A model generated the notes under the pieces. It saw only the letters and a program-made list of their open reading frames with translations, searched no databases and had not been told where the DNA came from. DNA of 24,000 nucleotides from Lachnospiraceae bacterium (GTDB taxonomy: Bacteria; Bacillota; Clostridia; Lachnospirales; Lachnospiraceae), in contig JAKSHY010000002.1 of assembly GCA_024399135.1 (NCBI GenBank), positions 116,238-140,237 of the forward strand, read 5' to 3'. The position numbers and the translations under genes are program-made. Positions 105 to 12,765 of the stretch are shown here, piece after piece (the first letter of the stretch is position 1; every line of letters starts with the position of its first letter).

Positions 105-135
105 ATCAAAATAGGACCTCCTGTATAGAAGGTCC
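105..135 (-). terminator. Putative intrinsic terminator downstream of the DUF1524 ORF
   Basis: GGACCT (114-119) pairs with AGGTCC (130-135), giving a 6-bp stem and 10-nt loop. On the minus strand it is followed by TATTTTGATTG. Confidence 0.45.
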
Positions 136-157
136 CTAATTCTTTGATGCTCTTTAA

Positions 158-1231
158 TTAGTTTGCCAAAACAGTTTCTCGCGTTTCATCAAACACCTTA
201 ATAAACAAATCCCCTCTTTGACTCTTCAATTCTTCGATATTTGTAATATCAGAATACTTACCAAAATCTTTTTCTTCGATTTCTTCATATTTGGTGATTT
301 GTGATTTTAACCAAGCATCTGTTATTTCATTTAAGGCTTTACTCTTTTTAGCAATATTGTCTGTTTTAGGCAGCAATGCCAGATTCGTTAAACTATCCTT
401 CATAATAGAGTTTGCCATATTGTTTCCACCAAACTTTTCTTGTGGAATTATGTGGTCAACTTCAATCTTATCTGCCGAACTATTATAAGGCTCAATATTC
501 TTTAATGAATAGTAATAATACAAAATAGGTGTCATCGTTTTCTGTGTTACTGGCTGACCATTATAAGAACCAGATAGAGCACCTTCTATAAATGTCTTCC
601 ACTCTTGCTTTGCAACTGGTAAAATTCTGTTCTTCCAGTCTTTAATATCTGCAGACATTTTGGAGTCACCAGAGCCTCTCCACACCTTAGTAGAATATTC
701 GAAAACCAATCTATCAAAAAGAATTCGAGCATCTCGCTGAAACGCCTTGTATTGCGCGCCACTCACAGTTGGACAACCCTTATCTTTCCAATCCTCTAAC
801 AAAATAGCTATAAACTCCAAAGAAATCGCATTTCCAAGTAATTTAGCCATCGGCTTATCCCATGACTGAAAATACTTAAAAAATGTATCCGTCATAAGAA
901 TTTCGCATACTTTATTTATATCATTTACCAAGTCATCAATATCCGTGTCCCAATTAATATTTTTACCTTTTTCTAAACTTGAAACACTTTGCGCTGACAT
1001 TCCTTGTGCGCATACTGAACTGATAAGTTTGAAGCCTAAAGTTATTTTATCCATAGAAATTTCATCATGAATAACTGTTGAATCAAATATCAATCGTTTC
1101 TTATCAATTCTTGAAATCAATGTGGCAGCTAAATCCCATCTAACAACTCCATCCGGCTCTTCAACTCCCAAATTTTTATACATATCTTTTACAAGAAGCA
1201 AACGGTAACAACAAGTAACATATGGTAACAA
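158..1231 (-). CDS. DUF1524 / HNH-type nuclease domain protein (GmrSD C-terminal-half-like), apparently missing the N-terminal DUF262 half; possibly a 5'-truncated remnant
   Basis: The C-terminal motif VDHIIPQ...(N)...NLALLPKTDNIAKKSK is typical of the DUF1524 His-Me finger. No DGQQR/ParB-like DUF262 motif is present. The first 10 track codons are encoded by the GTAACA decamer repeats, so the first plausible ATG is 1183 (MYKNLG), and it has no convincing SD. Confidence 0.6.
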   Translation of the reverse strand: MLPYVTCCYRLLLVKDMYKNLGVEEPDGVVRWDLAATLISRIDKKRLIFDSTVIHDEISMDKITLGFKLISSVCAQGMSAQSVSSLEKGKNINWDTDIDDLVNDINKVCEILMTDTFFKYFQSWDKPMAKLLGNAISLEFIAILLEDWKDKGCPTVSGAQYKAFQRDARILFDRLVFEYSTKVWRGSGDSKMSADIKDWKNRILPVAKQEWKTFIEGALSGSYNGQPVTQKTMTPILYYYYSLKNIEPYNSSADKIEVDHIIPQEKFGGNNMANSIMKDSLTNLALLPKTDNIAKKSKALNEITDAWLKSQITKYEEIEEKDFGKYSDITNIEELKSQRGDLFIKVFDETRETVLAN

Positions 1232-1240
1232 TCAGTAACA
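1201..1240. repeat. Four tandem 10-bp units, each ending in GTAACA (aacgGTAACA acaaGTAACA tatgGTAACA atcaGTAACA)
   Basis: Read directly from the sequence. GTAACA occurs at 1205-1210, 1215-1220, 1225-1230 and 1235-1240, an exact 10-bp period. Confidence 0.85.
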
Positions 1241-1371
1241 AACCACAAATCGGCAAGCAATGTCTCTGTCCAGACAGACACACGAGCGCTTGCTGGTAGT
1301 TGCTCCCAAGCCCTTCAAACAATCCGGAGGATTGGACTACGCTGATTATGAATAAAACTTTTAATCCAACA

Positions 1372-3396
1372 CTAACTTTCCGCTAATTCATTTTCCATTT
1401 CTTTTATTTTGTCTAAATTAACTTCGAAGAGTTTATAATACTTCTTTTCTAAGTGCTTTTTTCTTTTCTCTGTCAATATATTAACTACTTCAAAAATATT
1501 CACTTTCTTATTCGTTATAAAAGAAGCAACACACCCAACAAATGGTGGAACTATCGCTAATCCACTAATTAAATATGTCTTGTAAGTAGCATTTAAAAAA
1601 ATATATGCAATAATAATTCCAATATAATATAAAACAACTAAGATCCTAAATCCATTTTTAAATACTTTTGTTCTCTTATCTATCATTCTATCTGCTTTTT
1701 CTTTTATCTTTAAGCAATCAGAATAACGTTTTCTCAACTCCGTCTTAGCTTTTTCTCTTAATTCTTCTTTTTCTAAAATAAGTTGATTTTTTTCGGAGCT
1801 ATTATTCAATATATTCTCGTCTTTTTTCTTTAAAATGGCTTTGTATTCCTCAATTGCCCTATCTCGTTCTTTTAATTCACTATCTAATCTTTCTTTCTCT
1901 GATTGATATATTGACAAATCTTTTTCGGACAAGAAATCTAACACATCGTCCAGAACTCTTATTTCTATTTCTTCTGGTTTCTTTGCTTCTTCTCTTAACG
2001 AAAGAATGACATCCGCCATCTGTTCAGCGTCAAGTTTTTTATTCCGATAATCATCATAAGCCTTTTCATATTTTTCTGAGACCGATTGTGATATCATACT
2101 TGACAGCACGATTTTAGCCTTTAGCAAGACGCTGAAATTTGAAGGAAAATCTTTTGCACCAAATCCTTTATTTAAATCAAACCATAATCTATTAGTAATA
2201 CCACTCATATTAATTGCTAACGGAATTTTTCTTACTGCCATATCATTAGAAATAAACAACATTTTGCCAACTTCAGTTAGTACAATATGCTGACAGGATT
2301 TCAAGTCATCTACATCATTTTCTTTTCTTAAAATATTTACATAATTAATATGTTTTATATATCTAAATTTATCATCCGAAAGCTCATATTTTGCAATACA
2401 TTCCTCGCTTTCAAGATTATATTTCTGATTAGCCTCTTCATAATAGTTATATCCATCAGCTTGAACTATTCCTTTTGCTTTAAGTAAGCTAAAGAAAGCA
2501 GCTTTCTTTTCAATAACATCTGCTGCAGTCTTACAACCGTTTACAATCGTGTTCATCGCATAATTTTCGACATCTACAATATCATTTCCAAGAACTATAT
2601 TTTCTGCTTTTGTAAAAAATTTATCGATCTCAATTTTAACATCTTCAAAATACCTCACTTTTATATTATGTGAGCCACTTTTACTATTCATTTCATATAT
2701 TAGGCTAAGCAAATCCTCCACATGTCTTTTAAATACCTCTCCATTATATCCGGCCAAGTGAAATAAAATCTCTATCTCAGCATATAATATAATAGGTTTA
2801 TTCCAAGCCCGTCTTTCTGAAACATTACTATTATGATTAATGCCCGCATACAAAACAGCGCCTTCTTTAATTGTATTAATCATTGCCATAATATCTTTAT
2901 CATCCTGTTTTTCTACAATATAAGCACTTATGACATCTGAAAAATGGTTTCCATTTGATTCATCCAATAAAAAAGCACAAAATTCCTTAACTAATTGTTC
3001 TTTTTCTTTTGCAGATAATTCTCCTCTTTTTTCTTCTGCAAATTTTTCAAGTTCACGTATTACATTATCGCTTTTCGAAATAGCATTTTGACATTGTTCA
3101 TCAATTGAAGAATTTGGAAGTTTACTTATATCAACTGTATATTGATTATTCTCTCTCGATACATAATCTATTTTCTTTAAAGAAGTCTGAATAACATAAT
3201 CTGGAATACAAAATCCATACTGTGCTCGAATTTTTTCAGAAATATCCGTAATTCCAAAACAATATAAACCTGTACCTATAACTATTCCCTCAACAAAACG
3301 TGAAACAATAAAATAAATATCACTTTTTCCATCATTATATAATTGTCTAAATGTAACCAAAGACGCTAAATTTTTAACTTCTGTACTTAATCTCAT
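1372..3396 (-). CDS. Hypothetical 674-aa protein: globular N-terminal two-thirds with no motif I recognise, a long charged coiled-coil, then two C-terminal TM helices
   Basis: ATG at 3396 (MRLSTEV) lies 13 nt after the hsdR TAG (3412..3410), with GAAGGAA between them. The track start at 3429 overlaps hsdR and has no SD. The heptad-like K/E-rich region is SEKERLDSELKERDRAIEEYKAILKKKDE...EKEELREKAKTELRKRY. The hydrophobic segments are FRILVVLYYIGIIIAYIFL and LISGLAIVPPFVGCVASFI (about nt 1500-1650). Confidence 0.8.
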   Translation of the reverse strand: MRLSTEVKNLASLVTFRQLYNDGKSDIYFIVSRFVEGIVIGTGLYCFGITDISEKIRAQYGFCIPDYVIQTSLKKIDYVSRENNQYTVDISKLPNSSIDEQCQNAISKSDNVIRELEKFAEEKRGELSAKEKEQLVKEFCAFLLDESNGNHFSDVISAYIVEKQDDKDIMAMINTIKEGAVLYAGINHNSNVSERRAWNKPIILYAEIEILFHLAGYNGEVFKRHVEDLLSLIYEMNSKSGSHNIKVRYFEDVKIEIDKFFTKAENIVLGNDIVDVENYAMNTIVNGCKTAADVIEKKAAFFSLLKAKGIVQADGYNYYEEANQKYNLESEECIAKYELSDDKFRYIKHINYVNILRKENDVDDLKSCQHIVLTEVGKMLFISNDMAVRKIPLAINMSGITNRLWFDLNKGFGAKDFPSNFSVLLKAKIVLSSMISQSVSEKYEKAYDDYRNKKLDAEQMADVILSLREEAKKPEEIEIRVLDDVLDFLSEKDLSIYQSEKERLDSELKERDRAIEEYKAILKKKDENILNNSSEKNQLILEKEELREKAKTELRKRYSDCLKIKEKADRMIDKRTKVFKNGFRILVVLYYIGIIIAYIFLNATYKTYLISGLAIVPPFVGCVASFITNKKVNIFEVVNILTEKRKKHLEKKYYKLFEVNLDKIKEMENELAES

Positions 3397-3409
3397 TTTC
3401 TCATTCCTT

Positions 3410-6400
3410 CTACGCTGCCGCATTGGCATTTATTGTCTCTATAACCTTCCTAATTCCCATCCACACATTCAGATCTGTAAATATTTCAACCACACTTCCC
3501 TGGTCTGTAAAAGGTGATTCCTGAAGAACAGAAAGATCCTTCATCATTCCGTTGTGAACGATATATTCCACTATCTGATTCACAAAATATATCTGCCTGC
3601 TATCAAGGCTTGTGCTTGTCAGATATTCTGAGAAAGCTTCCTTGGCAGCATTCATATCAAGACCAACGATCTCACGAACTAATTCGCCTAATGGCTTCTG
3701 TCCATACTCATGCTCATAATCCTGCTTAGTACCAACCTCATTCCAAAGGATATCCTCAAGTGTTGATATATCAGAACTTGTAAGAGGCTGATTAGTCTTA
3801 AGCTTTGCAATTACAACATTATCTTGATGTTGCCTAATATAGAATTCAGCTTTAGCTTTGTAATTCTTCAATTCATCATTTTCAAGCTCAGATTCCTTCC
3901 ATTCCACAGACAAAAGATCATCTTCAAAATTCGTATCATAACGAAGCTTATGCTTCGGAATATACTTCATAAGATCACGGAGTTTTTCTCTGATTTCTTC
4001 AAATTCATTGATACCGGCATTATCAAGATAATCTGTATTTAGAATCTTCTGAATCAAATCGCTCTGCATCTGAATCTCAGGAATATTTGCCACACTGGCA
4101 ATACCTTCTACCTTCTTATAAAGGTCGCTTCTTGCTCGTGTATATTTCTTGCCTACAAGATAAGCAAGTTCTATGCCATACATAAGTGCATCAAATCTTA
4201 CTGCACTCGCCTCATCATCATCCGGCAAAATGAGTGGTGCCAGTTCTTCCCTGACAATCAATGTGTCCTCATAGGTAAGACACTGATAATTAGTTTCCGC
4301 AGAATATAAATCCACATATTTCAAATGCTGACGAACTGCAAAATTGTCTCTTGGTAACTCCTGCACCTTTTCAGACATTTGTTTTACCAAAAGATTTCTA
4401 TATGCAATGAGTCTTTCAATCTGATAATCAATATCCTGCAATTTATAAGAAATCTCAAATTTCAAGTTAAAGATAGCTCCCTGTAGAGCAATCATATTGG
4501 CAGTTGCTTTACCTTTATTCATTCGGAAGAATTCAAAGTTTCCGCAGAAATCAAATATATAGAACTTCTGCTTATCTTCCCCATCAATAAGTCCAGGACA
4601 AAGTCTGGTACCACGTCCAATCATCTGCCAGAATTTTGCCTTACTCATAACCTTCTTGAAGAATACAAGGTTTATTACTTCCGGTACATCAATACCGGTA
4701 TCCAGCATATCAACAGAGATAGCAATCTGTGGCATCTTCTTTGGATCAGAGAATTCATCTATAGCACTCTGGGCATAGGTCATATAGTTATCAATCACCT
4801 TTGCATAATCCGGAAGATGTGGATACTCCTTATGGAATACTTCAAGTATCTTTTCAGCATGATCATGATTCTTTGCAAATATAATGGTTTTACCAATCTT
4901 CTGACCATAATCTATCTTGATTCCATTGGTCATAAGTGTATGGAGAACCTGACGAATTGTATCCTCATTGAAAATCCATGTATTTAATGCAGATGAACCT
5001 ATAGACTCCGGAAGCTCACCATTTTCATCCTCAAAGGTAGCCTCATACTCTTCTTTATCTTTCTCTGATAAATCATCATAAACAATACCCTGTTCAATGA
5101 ATTTCAGTTTTGATTCTACCGAAACATAGTCAACAAGATATCCATCCTTTACTGCCTGAGCTAAATCGTAACCATAGGTAGGCACACCATTTTCCAGTTC
5201 AAATACTTCATAAGTATTTTTATCAATTTCATCCTTTGGAGTTGCTGTTAATCCTACCAATGGCGCATCGAAATAGGTAAAAATATCGCGATATTTATTA
5301 TAAATTGATCTATGGGCCTCATCACAGATTACCAGGTCAAAATGGCCACAGGTAAACAGTTTCCCATCGTTATCATTAACCGTATCAATGCAGTTAATCA
5401 TGGTCTGATATGTAGAAAATACGCAGTGAGCGTTATAATTATCTTTTTCCTCACACAGGTTCGTGCATGACAAATTAGGAAGCATATTTACAAAGCTTCT
5501 CTTTGCCTGTGTAACCAGCGAATTTCTATCTGCAAGGAAAAGAATATTCTTTACCCAGCCCGCTTTCAGTAAGCAATCGCAAAGAGCAATAACAGTTCTT
5601 GTCTTACCTGAACCCGTTGCCATTACAAGAAGTGCTTTTCTACGATTCTTCTCGTCAAAGCTATGACATACTGCCTTAATTGCTGATTCTTGATAATAAC
5701 GGCCGGCAATGTTTTTATCTACACTTACATGCTTTAGGCTTGTACGCATAGTAAGCAAATTGAACCACTTCTCCAAATCTCTCTTGGAATAGATTACAGA
5801 GCACTTTCTCTCAGGATATTGGTCATCGATGATATGCGTATCAAATCCATTGGTAAGAAATACAACTGGTCTCCTCTTATATTTCTGTTCCAATAAATCG
5901 GCATATAATTTTGCCTGCTGTCTACCCTTGGATACATCTACGCAGGTCCGTTTTGCTTCAATTACTGCCAATGGCTTATGCATGTCATCGTAAAGTACAT
6001 AGTCTGCATAACCCACTTCTGATTTGTTAGGCATACCCGGAAGCTCTACTTCATTAATCCAGTCCTTTCCTTCGGTCCAGCCTGCATCCATAAGCATAGA
6101 ATCAATATAAAGCTTTCTAGTTTTATACTCAGATAAATCCAATGGCTTTGGAACATAAGTCTGCTGCTGTTCCTGTCTACGGGCAGATAATTCTTCCTTG
6201 AGAGAAGCATTTTCAGCAATCAGCTTCTGTAAGTCAAGTTCCTGCTGTGCATTCTTCTCCTGCTCCTTAGCAAGTTCTTCTTTGGTCTGCGCTGCAGTTT
6301 CTTTAGATTTTTTCGCTTTTTCTATACGGTCACTAATGATCTTCTTATCAAAGACACGTTCTTCATACTGGTCAGAGTAGCAATAAGCAATAAAATCCAA

Positions 6401-6754
6401 ATAAATAAACAGATTCTCCAGGCATAGCATGGCCTCATCTCTGCCAAGCTTCTTGTTACTGTGAGCCACATTATTGCCGCAACGACGAATATAATCCATA
6501 CGCTTCCAAAGATCAGCACCTATAATCTGTCTGTATTCTTCTGCATTCATAAGGCTCTGCAAATTATCCTGGTAAGGCATCTCCAGTTCCTTATCCACGG
6601 AATACATCCATTTCAGAGCGAACTCCATCGCCATGCGGCTATTAATAATACTAGCCTCCGGATCCATAAGAATAATCTTCTCAGCTGATATTGCCACATC
6701 CTCAAAGGAAGCGAATTTCGATTCATTTTTCAAATAATCAAAGTTGGTTATCAT
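3410..6754 (-). CDS. hsdR: Type I restriction endonuclease R subunit (N-terminal DUF4145-like domain, coiled-coil linker, PD-(D/E)xK nuclease, SF2 helicase, EcoEI_R_C-like tail)
   Basis: Motifs seen: YADYVLYD...VIEAKR (nuclease), MATGSGKTRT (motif I), VICDEAHRS (DEAH), GLTATP (III), QMIGRGTR (VI). ATG at 6754 (MITNFDYL) has GGAGG 9 nt upstream. The track start at 6763 is TTG. Confidence 0.95.
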   Translation of the reverse strand: MITNFDYLKNESKFASFEDVAISAEKIILMDPEASIINSRMAMEFALKWMYSVDKELEMPYQDNLQSLMNAEEYRQIIGADLWKRMDYIRRCGNNVAHSNKKLGRDEAMLCLENLFIYLDFIAYCYSDQYEERVFDKKIISDRIEKAKKSKETAAQTKEELAKEQEKNAQQELDLQKLIAENASLKEELSARRQEQQQTYVPKPLDLSEYKTRKLYIDSMLMDAGWTEGKDWINEVELPGMPNKSEVGYADYVLYDDMHKPLAVIEAKRTCVDVSKGRQQAKLYADLLEQKYKRRPVVFLTNGFDTHIIDDQYPERKCSVIYSKRDLEKWFNLLTMRTSLKHVSVDKNIAGRYYQESAIKAVCHSFDEKNRRKALLVMATGSGKTRTVIALCDCLLKAGWVKNILFLADRNSLVTQAKRSFVNMLPNLSCTNLCEEKDNYNAHCVFSTYQTMINCIDTVNDNDGKLFTCGHFDLVICDEAHRSIYNKYRDIFTYFDAPLVGLTATPKDEIDKNTYEVFELENGVPTYGYDLAQAVKDGYLVDYVSVESKLKFIEQGIVYDDLSEKDKEEYEATFEDENGELPESIGSSALNTWIFNEDTIRQVLHTLMTNGIKIDYGQKIGKTIIFAKNHDHAEKILEVFHKEYPHLPDYAKVIDNYMTYAQSAIDEFSDPKKMPQIAISVDMLDTGIDVPEVINLVFFKKVMSKAKFWQMIGRGTRLCPGLIDGEDKQKFYIFDFCGNFEFFRMNKGKATANMIALQGAIFNLKFEISYKLQDIDYQIERLIAYRNLLVKQMSEKVQELPRDNFAVRQHLKYVDLYSAETNYQCLTYEDTLIVREELAPLILPDDDEASAVRFDALMYGIELAYLVGKKYTRARSDLYKKVEGIASVANIPEIQMQSDLIQKILNTDYLDNAGINEFEEIREKLRDLMKYIPKHKLRYDTNFEDDLLSVEWKESELENDELKNYKAKAEFYIRQHQDNVVIAKLKTNQPLTSSDISTLEDILWNEVGTKQDYEHEYGQKPLGELVREIVGLDMNAAKEAFSEYLTSTSLDSRQIYFVNQIVEYIVHNGMMKDLSVLQESPFTDQGSVVEIFTDLNVWMGIRKVIETINANAAA

Positions 6755-6780
6755 AAGGCACAACCTCCCAACACTCTAAA

Positions 6781-7305
6781 CTATTTAAACAATTCAGGTT
6801 CTTCATTGTACAAATCAATTAACCATGGTTGTGGGACATATACAAGTATCATTTCATTATCCCAACCAAGTGAAACAGCCTGATCAGGTTGATGTATAAA
6901 GAGTCCATTTAATAAATACACAGTGTCACCTGAATTTCTGTCCAATTTAATTGCTTTCTCTTTGCTACGCAAAAGTTTACATACTATTTTCATTTGCTCT
7001 GGACTTAACTTTTGTAGTTTCTTTCTTTGATTCTCCTTGAATTTCTTATTTTTTCTTTTCGAACATATATAAGAAAATATTGATGAAATAGCTAAAGTAA
7101 AAATCAAAGACAGACTAAGTAAGAAAATAATACCAATTATTTGCTTCCACATATCAGGCAAGTTATTCAGTGACATTTTTTCAAGAATTTCTATTGGAAG
7201 AAACAATAGCATGCCTGACAATATTGCTACAGCAATGAGTGCCGGTGTTATTTTCTTAAAATTATCAAATGTTTTCTCTGCTATACTATCAACCGATATA
7301 TTCAT
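6781..7305 (-). CDS. Two-TM membrane protein with a C-terminal soluble domain; resembles the superinfection-exclusion SieB family (PF14163) from memory, unverified
   Basis: TM segments: ITPALIAVAILSGMLLFLPI and IIGIIFLLSLSLIFTLAISSIF. These are followed by a basic stretch KRKNKKFKENQRKK, then LSPEQMKIVCKLL...SGDTVYLLNGLFI...PQPWLIDL. Its ATG directly abuts the upstream stop (TAAATG at 7308..7303). Confidence 0.6.
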   Translation of the reverse strand: MNISVDSIAEKTFDNFKKITPALIAVAILSGMLLFLPIEILEKMSLNNLPDMWKQIIGIIFLLSLSLIFTLAISSIFSYICSKRKNKKFKENQRKKLQKLSPEQMKIVCKLLRSKEKAIKLDRNSGDTVYLLNGLFIHQPDQAVSLGWDNEMILVYVPQPWLIDLYNEEPELFK

Positions 7306-7644
7306 TTATCTTCGACCTTTCTTCATACCTTGTGATATTTGTTGACGAATTTCAGGCATCTTTATAGCTTCAGTCATAAGCGTATTCATCATATCTGCCC
7401 CAAGTTTATTTTCCATTTCCTTCTGCATCAGTTCAAGCTGATGTTTATGCTCGATTTCTTGTTTTTCAAGATCATATTTATGTTTCTCTCGTTCAGTTTC
7501 CAAATCTAATTCATGTTGCTTAATTAACTTTTCAATTTCTCCTTTTGTCTCTTTACGAGATATCATTACAGAAGATATTGCTGCAATTAAAGCACCAAGA
7601 ACTGAAACTATATATGGCATTATTTCTTTGATAATCTCTAACAT
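7306..7644 (-). CDS. Small single-TM protein with a highly charged coiled-coil tail (112 aa), unknown function
   Basis: N-terminal TM segment PYIVSVLGALIAAISSVMI, followed by KETKGEIEKLIKQHELDLETEREKHKYDLEKQEIEHKHQLELMQKEMENK. AGGAG lies 7 nt upstream and overlaps the hsdS stop codon. Confidence 0.75.
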   Translation of the reverse strand: MLEIIKEIMPYIVSVLGALIAAISSVMISRKETKGEIEKLIKQHELDLETEREKHKYDLEKQEIEHKHQLELMQKEMENKLGADMMNTLMTEAIKMPEIRQQISQGMKKGRR

Positions 7645-7653
7645 AACTTTCTC

Positions 7654-8790
7654 CTAACCAAAATATTTTTGCATTAATGAATCAAATAATAACTGTGTCT
7701 CGTCCAATGCCTTCTGCACTACAACTTTTGATTTGTCGACTTGTTTGACAAAATCTGCGAACTGCACTTGTTCGTTCACTGGAACTAGCGGAACTGGTAA
7801 TTCCTTCAACTTATTTAAAGGCAATTGTTTTAGTGTTGACTGATTCGTTGAACCAAACATAAAACGCTGTGCCTCTTCTGTAGTCAAATAATGACTAATA
7901 AATAATCTATCCGCCTTATTTTTATCAATTCTTATTACTGCTAAATTTCTAGTAACATTCATTCCTTTGCATCTTTCATCGCTAAGCATAACCTGCCCTG
8001 GTTGTCCAATAACCTGAACTAGAATTTCATCACCAATTAACCTTGTTTTTTTATACTTACACTCTATATCTGATGCAACCCTGTAAACATTATCTAAGTT
8101 TAAGCTTCCGTTCTTGAAATCAGAAGGTCTTACCATGGGAATACCATCTTCAACATTATCACCTGGTACAACTATTCCGTATGATAATCCAGCACCTTCT
8201 TGAATCAATTCAATAAGTTGCTTTTTCTCATATTCCTGACTTCCAAACAGCTCGACAAATCGGGCTTTGATGAGGTCATCCACAGTCTCTAGTTCTTTTT
8301 TTCGTAAATCAATAATAGATTTTACTTTTTCTATCGAATCAACAATATTGCTTTGTTCTTCCAACACTGGGAATCTAATCAGCATTGATAAAAAATCCGC
8401 ATCCGGTATACTTCTTCGTCTAGCAGTTGTTCCTCGTAATTTTGACTTATAATATTCAATACTTCTCGGAGATCTTAATGCATATTCTAAATATTTAGGA
8501 ATAACCTTGTCTGTATCCACATCCCATATTTTATATGCTGGACTGACAATTCCTTCATCTGCCAATTCCTGAACCGCAAGAACCCCCTCATCGATAGGAA
8601 AGCTCTCCACCAATTGATGTCTAGAAACAACCTGATATGATGACTGATCAACAGATGCTATTTGTTTTTTGAATCTGTCATCTTGGAACATCAATCCTTC
8701 ATGCATAGTCATTGAAAGAACAGAATATTTTTCATTCCCACACTTTTTTACTTTTGCCTTTTTTATAAGTTTTCCAACTTCTATTTCCAT
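7654..8790 (-). CDS. hsdS: Type I restriction-modification specificity subunit with two target-recognition domains
   Basis: The layout is typical of HsdS. The central conserved helix is LRKKELETVDDLIKARFVELFG and the C-terminal conserved helix is VVQKALDETQLLFDSLMQKYFG. The gene lies between hsdM and hsdR. Confidence 0.9.
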   Translation of the reverse strand: MEIEVGKLIKKAKVKKCGNEKYSVLSMTMHEGLMFQDDRFKKQIASVDQSSYQVVSRHQLVESFPIDEGVLAVQELADEGIVSPAYKIWDVDTDKVIPKYLEYALRSPRSIEYYKSKLRGTTARRRSIPDADFLSMLIRFPVLEEQSNIVDSIEKVKSIIDLRKKELETVDDLIKARFVELFGSQEYEKKQLIELIQEGAGLSYGIVVPGDNVEDGIPMVRPSDFKNGSLNLDNVYRVASDIECKYKKTRLIGDEILVQVIGQPGQVMLSDERCKGMNVTRNLAVIRIDKNKADRLFISHYLTTEEAQRFMFGSTNQSTLKQLPLNKLKELPVPLVPVNEQVQFADFVKQVDKSKVVVQKALDETQLLFDSLMQKYFG

Positions 8791-8834
8791 CTACATCATC
8801 CCTACAAATCCGAATTTAGGACTTGCCCTTTCCT

Positions 8835-10055
8835 TTAAAAGTATTCCGCCAACTTTACTTGTCCTGCCTCATAACTAATCACCAAATTTATACAAGCAAA
8901 AGTCTTAAATGACTTCATTTCAAATAGATCCTCACTTTTCTTCACAAGAAGATTTCTATTATTTTTATCATCAGATAACTTTATCAAATATTTTTTTATG
9001 TTTGTTTTATTTAGACCTTTTATTGGTTTAGGCAAATATCCGTCTATGTACGCATTTACCTGACTGGACGAAAAATCACTTTTCTCGTAATTACATAATG
9101 CATAAAGGACATGATTCAAACCATTTGACTCAGATATATTATCATTGTAGAGTCCACGAATAACCGAATATTCTGCTGCCAATCTTGTTTTCACCCAACC
9201 TTCTTGAGCTTTTATAAATATTTCATCGTTCATTAAAATCTTATCGCTTTCATTGTCGTAATAAGATATAGCAAGGCAATAGCACATTTCATTAACACTC
9301 TGTGGAATACCAGCAGTGCATTTAAGCACATAATTAGATAGATCATCAATCATAGGAACCGTAAAACCACATTCTCTAAACTTTTTAGACACAAAGCTAT
9401 TACATTCTGTATCATTAAAACCTCTAACAGATATTGTTTGAATTCGGCTTGCTATTGTCTGATAATTGGGCATTTTCTCAAAATACTGCATTATACTATT
9501 TGTGGCTCCAATAGCCAAAAAACGAACATTATTTTTTATCATTAGCGGATCATCTGCCATCGTTATAATGCAACTCAAATCCTCTAACATTTTTTCATCG
9601 TTGATAATTGTTTCAAAATTATCTAGCACCACAAGTTGATTTTTATTATCTTGAAGAAACAGCTTAAAAAAATCATTACTTACTTCATATGTTCTACTAG
9701 CCTCAAGATTACCAGCTGCAATGCCTGCATTTATCCCTGCTTCTTTGGTTTCGATTCTTTCCACTAACACTTCTGAATATAATGCAGAAAAATATTGATA
9801 GAACCCACCTTTCATTTTTACATCAGACAAATTGACAAATTTATATTTTCCTGCAACACTTTTCATAATATGAGTTGTTAGCCATGTCTTACCGCATCCA
9901 CTTTCTCCAGCAACAAATACATATTTATATCTATTTATCGCTCTTAAGAGTTCTTTTTCATAATATTCTCTTACTATGTAGCTTTTCTCATTAAATTCTT
10001 CCCTATTTCGAAAAATTGTATTTATTTTTTCTTCTGTTATACTCATTATCAACAA
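8835..10055 (-). CDS. P-loop NTPase (AAA+/ORC-Cdc6-like or AAA_22-like ATP-binding protein) inserted between hsdM and hsdS
   Basis: Walker A is VAGESGCGKTW and Walker B-like is QLVVLDNFE. A sensor-1-like FLAIGATN is followed by IASRI. The C-terminal roughly 150 aa could be a winged-helix or lid domain. The track start is TTG; an ATG at 10046 (MSITEEK) is the more likely start. Confidence 0.75.
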   Translation of the reverse strand: MLIMSITEEKINTIFRNREEFNEKSYIVREYYEKELLRAINRYKYVFVAGESGCGKTWLTTHIMKSVAGKYKFVNLSDVKMKGGFYQYFSALYSEVLVERIETKEAGINAGIAAGNLEASRTYEVSNDFFKLFLQDNKNQLVVLDNFETIINDEKMLEDLSCIITMADDPLMIKNNVRFLAIGATNSIMQYFEKMPNYQTIASRIQTISVRGFNDTECNSFVSKKFRECGFTVPMIDDLSNYVLKCTAGIPQSVNEMCYCLAISYYDNESDKILMNDEIFIKAQEGWVKTRLAAEYSVIRGLYNDNISESNGLNHVLYALCNYEKSDFSSSQVNAYIDGYLPKPIKGLNKTNIKKYLIKLSDDKNNRNLLVKKSEDLFEMKSFKTFACINLVISYEAGQVKLAEYF

Positions 10056-10069
10056 CCTGTCTTCTTTGA

Positions 10070-11575
10070 TTAATGTATTTTTATCAATTTCTCAAGTTCT
10101 TCCATTTCCTTGCCAATCTCCATCTCAATCTCACGGATGTTAGCCATAATTTCCGATGTAGGTGGGTACTCTACTGCCACATATTCCACCTCTTTATATT
10201 TATTGATGCTGAGATCATAATCATTGTCTTCTATTTCCTTCTTAGGCACCATGAACGACTTATCTGTACGCTTTCTGTCCTGTTCACCATCAAGATTCTT
10301 AAATCTCTGAATGATGTCAGGAATATCGTTGTCTGCCACTACTGAACGCTTATCATCTAAGCTAAATCCGTCTGCAGTCATATCATAGAACCATACATTA
10401 TCTGTTCCGCCATGCTCTGTCTTTGTAAATACAAGAATAGCGGTCGATACCCCGGCATATGGTTTAAATACACCAGAAGGCATTGAAATAACTGCCTCTA
10501 ATCTCTGATTCTCAACGATTTCTTTTCTAATTGCTTTGTGTGCAGTAGAAGAACCAAACAACACGCCATCAGGTACGATACATGCACATCTTCCACCTAT
10601 TCTTAACATACGCACAAACAATGCCAGAAACAGTAATTCTGTCTTCTTGGTACTGCAAACCTTAAGAAGATCTGCCGATACAATATCTGCATCCAAGCTT
10701 CCTTTGAATGGTGGATTTGCTAATATCAATGAATATTTATCCTTATCAGGATTCTGATCAGATAAGCTATCTCTATATTCAATAAAAGGACTTTCCACTC
10801 TATGATTCATCATATTCATAGCACCGATACGAAGCATGGTTCTATCCATATCAAAACCATGAAACATATGATTCATGAAATGGTCCTTCTTCTGTTTATC
10901 GTAGAAGATTTCTTCCTTCTTGTTATTCCACAGATATTCCCCAGCTTCCACAAGGAAACCAGCTGTACCACAAGATGGATCACAAATAATATCATCTGCT
11001 TTAGGATCCATCAGTTCTACCATCATCTTAATAATATGACGAGGCGTTCTAAACTGACCATTCACGCCTGCTGTAGCAAGCTTTGAAAGTAAATACTCAT
11101 ACACATCACCTCTGGCATCAGAATCATTTAACTTTGCCATCTGCGTGTAAAGTTCATCCATAGCATCTACAACCTTAGAAAGCATAAGCGGTGTAGGAAG
11201 CTTGAAGATAGCATCGTCCATATACTTTGAAAATGCACTGTCCTTACTGGCATGAAGATTCTTTATAAATGGGAATACCATTTCCTGCATAACAGAATAC
11301 ATTCTATCAGCGGGATAATCTCTAAACACTGACCACTTAAACTGTGTACCGTCGATAGTTCTTTCACCAATCTTTACTTCCTTGGCAAATACGCTCTCAT
11401 ATGGAAGACCAAGCATCGCGCTTTCCTTAGCGTGTGTATTATCTGATACATCTAGGTCATGGATAAACATAAGATATGTCATCTGCTCAATCACATCCAG
11501 TGGATTGGTAAGTCCACCAGTCCAGAAAATTTCCCATAAGCTATCAATTCTATTTTTCAATTCACCTGTTATCAT
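10070..11575 (-). CDS. hsdM: Type I restriction-modification N6-adenine DNA methyltransferase subunit
   Basis: HsdM_N-like N-terminus (ELKNRIDSLWEIFWTGGL...MTYLMFI). AdoMet motif ICDPSCGTAGFL. Catalytic motif LANPPFKGS. Confidence 0.95.
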   Translation of the reverse strand: MITGELKNRIDSLWEIFWTGGLTNPLDVIEQMTYLMFIHDLDVSDNTHAKESAMLGLPYESVFAKEVKIGERTIDGTQFKWSVFRDYPADRMYSVMQEMVFPFIKNLHASKDSAFSKYMDDAIFKLPTPLMLSKVVDAMDELYTQMAKLNDSDARGDVYEYLLSKLATAGVNGQFRTPRHIIKMMVELMDPKADDIICDPSCGTAGFLVEAGEYLWNNKKEEIFYDKQKKDHFMNHMFHGFDMDRTMLRIGAMNMMNHRVESPFIEYRDSLSDQNPDKDKYSLILANPPFKGSLDADIVSADLLKVCSTKKTELLFLALFVRMLRIGGRCACIVPDGVLFGSSTAHKAIRKEIVENQRLEAVISMPSGVFKPYAGVSTAILVFTKTEHGGTDNVWFYDMTADGFSLDDKRSVVADNDIPDIIQRFKNLDGEQDRKRTDKSFMVPKKEIEDNDYDLSINKYKEVEYVAVEYPPTSEIMANIREIEMEIGKEMEELEKLIKIH

Positions 11576-11578
11576 GAA

Positions 11579-12640
11579 TTAATCCTCCTTATCCCAATTC
11601 CATGTGTATTTAGTATATCTTCCGCCACCGATTTTTGTAATCTTTCCTTCTTTTACAAGTTCCGTCAGGGTTCTTTGTACTGTAGTCTGGCTAATCCCCG
11701 GTGTATTCTCCATAATCTCTGTCTTGGTTATGGTTCCAAGATGATTCTTTATCAATTCCTCTATCCTATCCGGCTTTGGAACCTTCTTTTCTTCTACTAC
11801 CTTTGCTCTGTCAAAGAATTCTCTATAGGCAGCTGTGATGATTCCAAGAACATATTTTACAAATGGTTCATAATCATTCTCATCTTCTATCCAGCCAGTA
11901 GAGCTTTCCTTCAACGCTTCGTAGTAGCTATCCTTTGTCTTTTCAATCAGCTTCTCCAAACTGATATATTTTCCAACGATATAATCATTCTGATATAGCA
12001 ATAATAATGTCAGTAATCTACTCATTCTGCCATTACCATCATTGAAAGGATGAATACATAAAAAATCGATAATGAACATTGGCATAATCAAGAGCGAATC
12101 CGCCTCACTTCTATTGATAGCCTCGTTGTAAGCAGCGCACAGATTAGTAATAGCTTCTGGTGTTTCCCATGCAGGTAATGGTCGGAATCTCACGAACTTA
12201 TTGCCTTGATTATCCTCTTCCTCAATTACATTATCTGCCGCCTTGAATTTTCCACCCTTTGCTGCATTTTCAAATCGATATAAATCTCTATGCAACTGCA
12301 AGATAAATGTATCTCTAACCGGAATATGCGGAAAGCTTTCATGAATCGTATTAAGCACATCTCTATATCCGGCAATCTCTCGCTCATTTCTGGTTCTTGG
12401 CATTGTCTTATCCAAAACAATCTTCTTTAATCGATCGTCTGATGTATAAATACCTTCAATTTTATTAGAACTCTCGGTACTCTGAATCTTGGCTACTTCA
12501 ACAAGACTCTCAAGAACATCCGCATGCTTTTCTGCAATTAAACGCTGCTCTCCTCTGTATTCATGAATCGTTGTAAGATAATTCACAATGTCCGGAGTTA
12601 ATAACTTTTTCCATTTTTCTGTATAATCAAAACTTCTCAT
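11579..12640 (-). CDS. Fic/DOC family protein (probable AMPylase) with an N-terminal inhibitory-helix motif and a C-terminal winged-HTH
   Basis: Fic motif HPFNDGNGRMSRLL. The [ST]xxxE[GN] inhibitory motif appears as SNKIEG. The C-terminal ISQTTVQRTLTELVKEGKITKIGGGRYTKY is HTH-like. GAGG lies 8 nt upstream of the ATG. The stop is 3 nt from the hsdM ATG, with AAGGAGGA inside the fic 3' end. Confidence 0.9.
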   Translation of the reverse strand: MRSFDYTEKWKKLLTPDIVNYLTTIHEYRGEQRLIAEKHADVLESLVEVAKIQSTESSNKIEGIYTSDDRLKKIVLDKTMPRTRNEREIAGYRDVLNTIHESFPHIPVRDTFILQLHRDLYRFENAAKGGKFKAADNVIEEEDNQGNKFVRFRPLPAWETPEAITNLCAAYNEAINRSEADSLLIMPMFIIDFLCIHPFNDGNGRMSRLLTLLLLYQNDYIVGKYISLEKLIEKTKDSYYEALKESSTGWIEDENDYEPFVKYVLGIITAAYREFFDRAKVVEEKKVPKPDRIEELIKNHLGTITKTEIMENTPGISQTTVQRTLTELVKEGKITKIGGGRYTKYTWNWDKED

Positions 12641-12660
12641 TTCAATTGCCTCATATAATT

Positions 12661-12765
12661 CTCAATTTCGTCATTTTATACATTTTGACTTAATTAGATT
12701 ATATACTTCAACTTCGTCAAATGTAAACATTATCTTCGTCATTTTTAACAATATGACGAAATTAA
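12661..12765 (-). promoter_or_regulatory. Putative promoter and operator region of the fic-hsd operon
   Basis: On the minus strand: -35 TTTACA (12727..12722), an 18-nt spacer, -10 TATAAT (12703..12698). There are four TTCGTCA boxes: 12667-12673, 12713-12719 and 12735-12741 on the plus strand, and 12754-12760 inverted. The last two form the palindrome TTCGTCAT-N10-ATGACGAA. One box overlaps a TTGACG -35-like hexamer. Confidence 0.5.

Follow-up and report, generated by a model that had tools for sequence, protein, structure and literature searches.

A predicted ORC/Cdc6-like AAA+ ATPase carried as a single-gene cassette in a Lachnospiraceae type I restriction operon: a candidate stand-alone defence gene

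Introduction

It is already known that type I restriction operons commonly carry embedded genes, and the set that includes PDC-S59, a single-gene phage defence candidate in PADLOC, comes from a guilt-by-embedding screen (Payne et al., bioRxiv 10.1101/2024.01.29.577857). One embedded gene, PrrC, is a guard lodged in a type I locus (PMC12707154). ATPases of the origin recognition complex (ORC)/Cdc6 clade of AAA+ proteins are core parts of bacteriophage exclusion (BREX) and related systems (PMC12839542), where BrxC/PglY, BrxD, DUF499 and SspC are found beside DNA methyltransferases (PMC12839542, PMC12707154). Here we analyse a gene, which we call X, that lies between hsdM and hsdS of a type I operon in a 24,000-nucleotide stretch (the window) of Lachnospiraceae bacterium DNA (GCA_024399135.1, contig JAKSHY010000002.1, positions 116,238 to 140,237). 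It is an independently acquired single-gene cassette and not a type I restriction subunit, its product is predicted to combine an ORC/Cdc6-like AAA+ ATPase with a winged-helix-like C-terminal domain, and members of its family turn up repeatedly inside or next to defence islands and methylation-based defence operons, with no fixed partner.

Results

X is an intact gene under selection

The open reading frame (ORF) that an earlier note, made from the sequence, had picked out between hsdM and hsdS is confirmed on the minus strand at 8835..10055, with 406 aa counted from the TTG at 10055. The start used by the database gene call and by homologues is the ATG at 10046, which gives a gene at 8835..10046 (minus strand) and a protein of 403 aa; residue numbers refer to this form throughout. 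X starts 23 nt past the hsdM stop (10070), and 44 nt lie between its end and the hsdS start (8790). Among 5.8 billion proteins, a word-indexed search identified just 18 close homologues at 39% identity or above, while 456 clusters at E ≤ 1e-3, 149 of them at E ≤ 1e-30, came out of 1.84 billion cluster representatives in a profile search; the family size of ~456 is counted in clusters at 50% identity. Nearly all of these are 400–430 aa long and are matched over their full length. The ratio of nonsynonymous to synonymous substitution rates (dN/dS) against the 80% identical relative at locus L014 is 0.06, with dS near saturation. With an unbroken frame, this many homologues and this dN/dS, X is an intact gene under selection and not a chance ORF.

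X entered the type I operon as a cassette

The type I genes of the window and the borders of the insertion are as follows.

10070..11575, minus strand: hsdM, 501 aa (Pfam N6_Mtase 1.5e-61 and HsdM_N; PADLOC MTase_I 1.7e-181)
8830..10072, minus strand: inserted cassette, consisting of X with ~26 nt upstream (the ribosome-binding region) and 5 nt downstream
8791..8829, minus strand: native hsdM-hsdS spacer kept directly upstream of hsdS, where GATTTGTAGGGATGATGTAGATG matches GATTTGTGGAGATGATGAGGATG at the hsdM-hsdS junction of locus L008
7654..8790, minus strand: hsdS, 378 aa (Pfam Methylase_S; PADLOC Specificity_I 1.2e-42)
3410..6763, minus strand: hsdR, 1117 aa (N-terminal DUF4145 and C-terminal EcoEI_R_C; Pfam and PADLOC)

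Locus L008 has nearly the same backbone as the window (HsdM 87% and HsdR 83% identical), while its copy of X is only 49% identical and sits elsewhere. The order there is hsdM-hsdS-X-hsdR, with X in the hsdS-hsdR slot and with hsdM and hsdS adjacent across a spacer of 44 nt, the 3' part of which is GATTTGTGGAGATGATGAGGATG. The window's own hsdS-hsdR slot is occupied not by X but by the gene of a 112-aa protein (p112) and a SieB-like gene. Because the native spacer survives just upstream of hsdS in the window, X must have entered directly after the hsdM stop codon. In a blastn comparison with the nearest relative, at L014, DNA identity is 77.5% over exactly 10072..8830, and the flanks are unrelated. 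Neither among the neighbours nor in the L014 comparison did we see a recombinase, transposase, integrase or terminal repeats travelling with the cassette. The GC content at third codon positions (GC3) is 0.24 in X and 0.21–0.26 in the other inserted genes, against 0.35–0.36 in hsdM, hsdR and the Fic gene upstream.

More distant plasmid relatives of the HsdR lineage (47–48% identical) have hsdM-hsdS or hsdS-hsdR adjacent and no X in those slots; on a Bacillus thuringiensis plasmid, for example, hsdS adjoins hsdR. On the Clostridium botulinum plasmid p2 (L099, HsdR 48% identical) the hsdS-hsdR slot holds a gene for an Rpn-family recombination-promoting nuclease (5927–6793), which shows this slot to be a recurrent landing site for varied cargo. 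X shows neither the constant presence nor the fixed position with HsdM, HsdS and HsdR that mark a type I core subunit, and most of its homologues are not near any hsd gene. The earlier note had suggested that X regulates methylase assembly. Nothing points to such a tie to this enzyme; it is opposed by the near-identical backbone in which hsdM and hsdS are adjacent and a divergent copy of X lies elsewhere, and it is weakened further by the distant HsdR relatives without X in their slots and by the many family members away from hsd genes. The separation of hsdM from hsdS, which the note found unusual, is real, but the order hsdM-X-hsdS is less unusual than was assumed, since embedded genes are common in type I operons (Payne et al., bioRxiv 10.1101/2024.01.29.577857).

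The predicted fold is ORC/Cdc6-like

The AlphaFold2 model of X, built from a 17-sequence alignment, has a predicted local distance difference test score (pLDDT) of 85.9 and a predicted template modelling score (pTM) of 0.79. Its top Foldseek matches in the PDB are the archaeal PF01637 ATPases 2qen (E 1e-11) and 2fna (2e-10), followed by archaeal Orc1/Cdc6, eukaryotic ORC/Cdc6 subunits, RuvB and RFC, with TnsC at rank 47. The entries 2qby, 1w5t and 2v1u and the ORC4/5 subunits were matched at E 1e-9 to 1e-7 over ~400 columns, with template modelling (TM) scores of ~0.4–0.5. The model runs through strand 2 (68–72), helices 73–78 and 82–89, a β-hairpin (94–121), the Walker B strand (138–142), strand 4 (175–180), a helix (195–201) ending in R201, strand 5 (202–207) and a helical lid (212–264). 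Hallmarks of the ORC/Cdc6 clade are a helix pair after strand 2, an arginine at the base of strand 5 and a helical bundle (PMC12839542), and all three have a counterpart in the predicted structure, as the helix pair, R201 and the lid. Two further regions stand out in the model.

9684..9767, minus strand: β-hairpin insert, residues 94–121, between strand 2 and the Walker B strand; its tip is variable and low-confidence or disordered, and the helix pair 73–89 precedes it
8838..9254, minus strand: C-terminal domain, residues 265–403, predicted to contain two long helices, a winged-helix-like unit whose third helix (KTNIKKYLIKLS) is rich in Lys, a β-wing and, beyond it, another helix with a β-hairpin

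When the C-terminal 142 residues were modelled alone, pLDDT was 89.8, and the best Foldseek matches of this isolated domain in the PDB were all of winged-helix type (HlyU, SmtB, SqrR, MarR, forkhead and the winged-helix domain, WHD, of NB-ARC proteins). Since none of them is significant (E at least 0.07), we call the domain winged-helix-like only.

At the sequence level, every Pfam and NCBIfam match of X falls below its curated threshold, including ATPase_2 (24.0 vs 33.2 bits), AAA_22 (23.2 vs 27), TIGR02928 (20.6 vs 181.3) and nSTAND3 (25.7 vs 27.2, covering just the P-loop); the scores for NACHT and NB-ARC are far under theirs. PDB sequence searches with close- and broad-family profiles gave matches at the level of the P-loop only (midasin, UvrA, ORC4/5). 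The description of X as an ORC/AAA_22-like ATPase in the earlier note is thus borne out by the fold, with Pfam scores below threshold, and motifs and fold agree with its proposal of an extra P-loop NTPase between hsdM and hsdS. The C-terminal domain that it put at about 150 aa exists as well, with ~140 confidently folded residues. The possibility it raised that X belongs to a transposition-ATPase family can be set aside, given that Pfam has no TniB or IstB match at E ≤ 0.01 and that TnsC comes so low in the Foldseek ranking.

Conserved residues define a family signature

Conservation was assessed in a family alignment of 121 members and in a second set of 101 members. The conserved motifs of X are listed from the N-terminus.

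9948..10016, minus strand: N-terminal pre-Walker motif IFRNREEFNEKSYIVREYYEKEL; R26 is invariant, and conservation reaches 90% or more at F12, R15, Y23 and E30; aligns to PDC-S59 positions 3–60
9882..9908, minus strand: Walker A GESGCGKTW, residues 47–55, with G47, G50, G52, K53 and W55 invariant
9612..9635, minus strand: Walker B LVVLDNFE, residues 138–145, of which 138–142 form a strand in the model
9444..9446, minus strand: Arg201, the invariant polar residue of its region, at the end of helix 195–201 and the base of strand 5, which is the AAA+ arginine-finger position
9300..9311, minus strand: GIPQ, residues 246–249, a GxP motif in the helical lid; G246, P248 and Q249 are invariant in close relatives and the family consensus is GIPQ

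Over the 121 members R26, G47, G50, G52, K53, W55, N143, D165 and R201 are invariant, and conservation is 90% or more at F12, R15, Y23, E30, S49, L56, E145, G180, N200, W284 and L354, although N200 falls short of 90% among the 101 members. The residue after the Walker B aspartate, where the catalytic glutamate normally sits, is always asparagine (N143), and an acidic residue, E145, follows three positions past the aspartate. Since N143 is invariant and E145 at least 90% conserved, D-N-F-E is a signature of the family and not noise. All three motifs named in the earlier note (GESGCGKTW, VVLDNFE and IGATN) are present, but its sensor-1 label for IGATN (residues 179–183) does not hold: G180 and A181 are conserved, whereas T182 and N183 vary even among close relatives. 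One relative, P0012 (44% identical; 16 contigs, L001–L004), has a two-residue deletion in Walker A (GE--SGKT) and is otherwise conserved. Its gene directly follows a type II restriction-modification (R-M) pair, and it may be either a variant deficient in nucleotide binding or a pseudogene at an early stage.

Comparison with described systems

The only specific library match of the family is PDC-S59, which is the top PADLOC family for 101 of the 101 members tested. The alignments are collinear from the N-terminal pre-Walker motif onwards and reach up to profile position 273 of 428 (best E 1.5e-14). The two are similar in size (428 profile positions against 403 aa) but distant, the C-terminal domain of X is unmatched, and on the sequence comparison the X family looks like a sister family of PDC-S59 more than a member of it. 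PDC-S59, being itself a candidate, lends X no mechanism; we found no mention of it by name in the literature searched or in the searched text of Payne et al.

Over the whole length, the best structural matches are Orc1/Cdc6, PABY2304 (2qen) and SSO1545 (2fna), at Foldseek E 1e-11 to 1e-8. X would share with the ORC/Cdc6 clade the helix pair after strand 2, the arginine at the base of strand 5, the lid and a C-terminal winged-helix-like domain. It differs in the extra β-hairpin after the helix pair, in having D-N-x-E instead of D-E, in the GxP motif of the lid, in its sub-threshold sequence scores and in having no role in chromosome replication. The BREX proteins BrxC/PglY and BrxD, DUF499 and SspC belong to the same AAA+ clade. 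BrxD is, like X, a stand-alone ATPase without extra domains (PMC12839542; PMC12707154), whereas BrxC, at 1200–1300 aa, is far larger. PADLOC gives no Brx match for X, and BrxF is weakly matched by 4 of 101 family members. Unlike the Brx proteins, X is a fixed part of no system, and both its slot and its host system change. Literature searches for single-gene defence systems with PF01637- or Cdc6-like ATPases returned only multi-gene systems of the BREX, Ssp and DISARM (defence island system associated with restriction-modification) types.

PrrC, RloC and the Campylobacter rlo genes resemble X in being extra P-loop NTPase genes nested among hsd genes in the same orientation. However, PrrC and RloC are ATPases of the ATP-binding cassette (ABC) type fused to an anticodon nuclease, while X is AAA+ by its predicted fold and has no nuclease domain, and the PADLOC models of PrrC and RloC do not match it. 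X is thus not an embedded anticodon nuclease of that type, and the Campylobacter analogy drawn in the earlier note is positional only.

With signal transduction ATPases with numerous domains (STAND) and related proteins resembling nucleotide-binding leucine-rich-repeat receptors (NLR-like; Avs, bNACHT, nSTAND1, nSTAND3), X shares sub-threshold nSTAND3, NACHT and NB-ARC matches at the P-loop, the GxP lid motif, the acidic residue three past the Walker B aspartate, a WHD-like domain and, in rare family members, fusions to a nucleosidase and, less clearly, to a SEFIR/TIR domain. Thus P0096 has an N-terminal PNP_UDP_1 nucleosidase domain (Pfam 6.4e-19; PDB methylthioadenosine/S-adenosylhomocysteine (MTA/SAH) nucleosidase 1.3e-7) and P0056 an N-terminal SEFIR/TIR-like match, weak and only at threshold; P0080 has an unassigned N-terminal extension of ~215 aa and P0131 an unassigned C-terminal one of ~180 aa. 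Nucleosidase and SEFIR/TIR domains are typical effector heads of NLR-like conflict proteins. Unlike STAND proteins, X lacks a C-terminal repeat or sensor array, is only 403 aa long, ends after the winged-helix-like domain and has an invariant arginine at the arginine-finger position. With scores below threshold as well, X is not a STAND NTPase as defined by these families. The sensor or switch role imagined in the earlier note stays plausible. X does not group with the transposition ATPases TniB, IstB and TnsC either, and no transposase is linked to it.

Relatives recur beside defence genes without a fixed partner

The earlier note had proposed examining where homologues of X lie. Close relatives with a context share 39–52% identity with X, and 80 further loci, among them L036, L025, L044 and L089, come from metagenomes. 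The contexts that can be described are listed below.

L008: embedded in a type I operon
L011: RepA_N protein two genes upstream; the second gene downstream encodes an HsdM-like methylase of 858 aa
L001: immediately following a type II R-M pair (PADLOC REase_II 1.7e-73, MTase_II 1.1e-115)
L010: preceded by three GmrSD_N proteins and a HEPN protein
L013 and L018: adjoining Mrr_cat, SMODS/AGS_C and SLATT genes
L017: preceded by type IV restriction enzyme fragments, in a Lachnospiraceae metagenome-assembled genome (MAG)
L007: AAA_15/DUF2813 protein five genes away
Other close relatives: four or five contexts without a recognisable defence gene
L036: DrmMI-[X]-DrmA-DrmB, the family member (28% identity; 9502–10551) lying inside a DISARM system
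L025: DrmMI-[X]
L044: X, a 90-aa ORF, an 854-aa HsdM-like methylase, then proteins of 425 and 1072 aa
L089: mad3/mad8-like neighbour

Homologues are thus seen to recur in restriction and defence loci: a defence neighbour was recognised at 12 or more of 42 non-redundant loci of at least 5 kb, a lower bound that is not set against a background rate. On this evidence the refuting outcome that the earlier note had named, homologues without enrichment in R-M or defence loci, has not come about. An all-against-all comparison of 382 neighbours from ~85 loci revealed no conserved partner gene, and the largest recurring neighbour cluster in it consists of HsdM-type methylases, at 5 loci. Other members are in different company. 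The one on the Vibrio plasmid pVgang, annotated 'AAA family ATPase', lies a few genes downstream of traD with a replication initiator and ParA nearby, and IS1595 transposases are found near two family members.

Three further ideas were tried and rejected. Small ORFs of 70–130 aa lie downstream of X at many loci, but they are unrelated to each other and to p112. A possible defence module in L039 and L034 was dropped: in L039 two X paralogues (440 and 543 aa, one at 8242–9474 and the other downstream of it) flank a block of three genes, the first of which encodes a Dpp/Opp-type ABC permease that also follows X in L034. Because this tested gene is such a permease, the trio looks like a transporter operon unconnected with defence. 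Phage origin was rejected as well, as there are no relatives of X in 50,697 phage genomes or in IMG/VR contigs, BFVD gave generic AAA+ folds only, and a single weak PHROG match, to phrog_6841 of unknown function, was found.

The operon and the neighbouring genes

The remaining genes of the run and its putative extent are as follows.

113..12727, minus strand: putative single transcription unit of nine genes, from gene gaps and promoter and terminator consensus matches
11579–12640, minus strand: Fic/SoFic-like gene (Pfam, PADLOC)
7306–7644, minus strand: p112, 112-aa protein, in the hsdS-hsdR slot
6781–7305, minus strand: SieB-like protein (Pfam SieB 8e-21)
1372–3429, minus strand: p685, 685 aa, no library match
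158–1231, minus strand: HNH/GmrSD_C-like protein, last gene of the run

Nine genes follow one another on the minus strand in the order Fic/SoFic, hsdM, X, hsdS, p112, SieB-like, hsdR, p685 and HNH-like. Distances between them range from a 20-nt overlap up to 44 nt, apart from the 140 nt between p685 and the HNH-like gene. Going by consensus matches only, this unit is bracketed by a promoter-like site at 12727..12698, the best in the scan, and a terminator-like hairpin at 136..113, the strongest, and the same scan placed no terminator-like sites on either side of X. Internal promoters around X were considered and rejected, the promoter-like matches there being no commoner than in shuffled sequence.

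The Fic-domain protein, which appears to be encoded by the first gene of the operon, has a C-terminal winged-helix region and a PADLOC SoFic match (3.8e-42), and its gene ends 3 nt before hsdM. In p112 an apparently hydrophobic N-terminal stretch is followed by a charged, repeat-like remainder (phrog_2542, 4e-8). It adjoins the SieB-like superinfection-exclusion protein (6781–7644 together), both genes have a GC3 of 0.24–0.26, and they may form a second embedded module, of two genes. The p685 gene overlaps the hsdR stop by 20 nt and has the lowest GC3 in the window (0.21); no significant match was found for its product in Pfam, PADLOC, NCBIfam or PHROGs. It is followed by the gene of the 357-aa HNH/GmrSD_C-like protein, with a weak HEC-05 match (6.5e-6), and the two may be a further uncharacterised defence pair. 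In HsdR, the N-terminal DUF4145 covers residues 27–117 and PADLOC PDC-M16A matches residues 5–217, an architecture that is the same in the HsdR of L008.

Discussion

What is the role of X then? The reading that we favour, with a probability of about 0.6, is that X acts on its own against phages or plasmids, sharing a transcript with the type I system but forming no part of the enzyme. Several points weigh against this. X itself matches PDC-S59 only at positions 3–60, or 58 of 428 (E 1.2e-6, 25.9 bits), and both the X family and PDC-S59 are candidates known from sequence only. The recurrence of defence neighbours is a raw count, and many family members lie among housekeeping or unannotated genes (Dpp/Opp permeases, UvrA, inosine monophosphate dehydrogenase). 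Pfam and the C-terminal Foldseek search reveal no recognisable effector domain in the solo protein, the winged-helix assignment is built on non-significant matches, and we infer the arginine finger and the slow hydrolysis discussed below from the structural model.

The best-surviving alternative, which we nevertheless regard as rather unlikely, is that X is a functional accessory of methyltransferase-based systems, either a PrrC-like guard that would respond when the restriction complex is inhibited or an ORC/Cdc6 scaffold or loader that tunes methylation against restriction in the manner of BrxC/BrxD. Family members do lie repeatedly near methyltransferases, namely HsdM (in the window, L008, L011 and L044), a type II enzyme (L001) and DrmMI (L036 and L025), and X is packed tightly into the operon on the same strand. 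Precedents exist both in PrrC, a guard within a type I locus (PMC12707154), and in the core role of ORC/Cdc6-clade ATPases in BREX-type systems (PMC12839542). However, these partner systems (type I, type II, DISARM) are unrelated, which disfavours a specific physical partnership, and for the majority of the family no methyltransferase lies within four genes. Near-identical backbones carry X in different slots, its identity (49%) is uncoupled from that of the backbone (83–87%), and distant relatives of the HsdR lineage lack it in the slots examined.

It is still less probable that X serves a mobile element, as an ORC-like replication or maintenance ATPase, as the remnant of a TniB-, IstB- or TnsC-like transposition ATPase, or as a hitch-hiking selfish cassette. 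X does behave like a cassette, and some of its relatives lie on a plasmid or close to replication genes (RepA_N in L011; initiator, traD and ParA on pVgang), but the cassette comes without transposase, integrase or terminal repeats, and a site between hsd or drm genes is ill-suited to a replication initiator. Against the IS1595 transposases near two members and the TnsC structure at Foldseek rank 47 stand the absence of any TniB or IstB match in Pfam at E ≤ 0.01 and the fact that ORC/Cdc6 and PF01637 proteins, and no transposition ATPases, head the structural matches. The weak phrog_6841 match is likewise offset by the lack of any match in the 50,697 phage genomes or IMG/VR. That X is a decaying, non-functional insertion is hardly credible, in spite of the Walker A deletion in P0012 and a GC content lower than that of the neighbours, given the intact frame with all family-invariant residues, the dN/dS of 0.06 against the 80% identical relative, the confidently predicted structure and the intact downstream hsdS with its native ribosome-binding region.

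If X is a stand-alone defence gene, it could work along the following lines. ATP binding would drive assembly of an oligomer in which R201 may act as an arginine finger, completing the active site of the neighbouring subunit. The invariant asparagine in place of the Walker B catalytic glutamate would be expected to make hydrolysis slow, which suggests that X works as a switch rather than as a motor. Recognition of invading DNA or of a phage factor may fall to the β-hairpin insert together with the Lys-rich winged-helix-like domain, and as its output X may bind or sequester DNA or pass targets to co-encoded nucleases.

A more specific version, which we put forward tentatively and would ourselves bet against, is that an ORC/Cdc6-like ATPase this minimal, with a winged-helix-like domain and no effector, constitutes by itself a new kind of anti-phage system, in which an ATP-locked oligomer (the asparagine being the lock) assembles on invading DNA or on a phage protein. 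This oligomer might block phage replication directly or mark the DNA for the co-encoded restriction machinery. Such a minimal stand-alone system would explain how X could spread as a bare cassette into type I, type II and DISARM operons.

Restriction operons are already known to harbour candidate defence genes, and X adds to these an unnamed family. Where its members are named at all, they are called 'AAA family ATPase' or 'hypothetical'; the family is missed at Pfam and NCBIfam thresholds and weakly matched by PADLOC. The locus is a clean natural example of nested defence genes, in which the same type I backbone holds different cargo in different slots, and with cassette borders that can be mapped to a few bases it helps in understanding how composite defence operons are assembled. 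If X does protect against phages, it would be a compact single-gene system made of a switch ATPase and a winged-helix-like domain, and it would raise the question of how immunity works without a nuclease, NADase or membrane effector.

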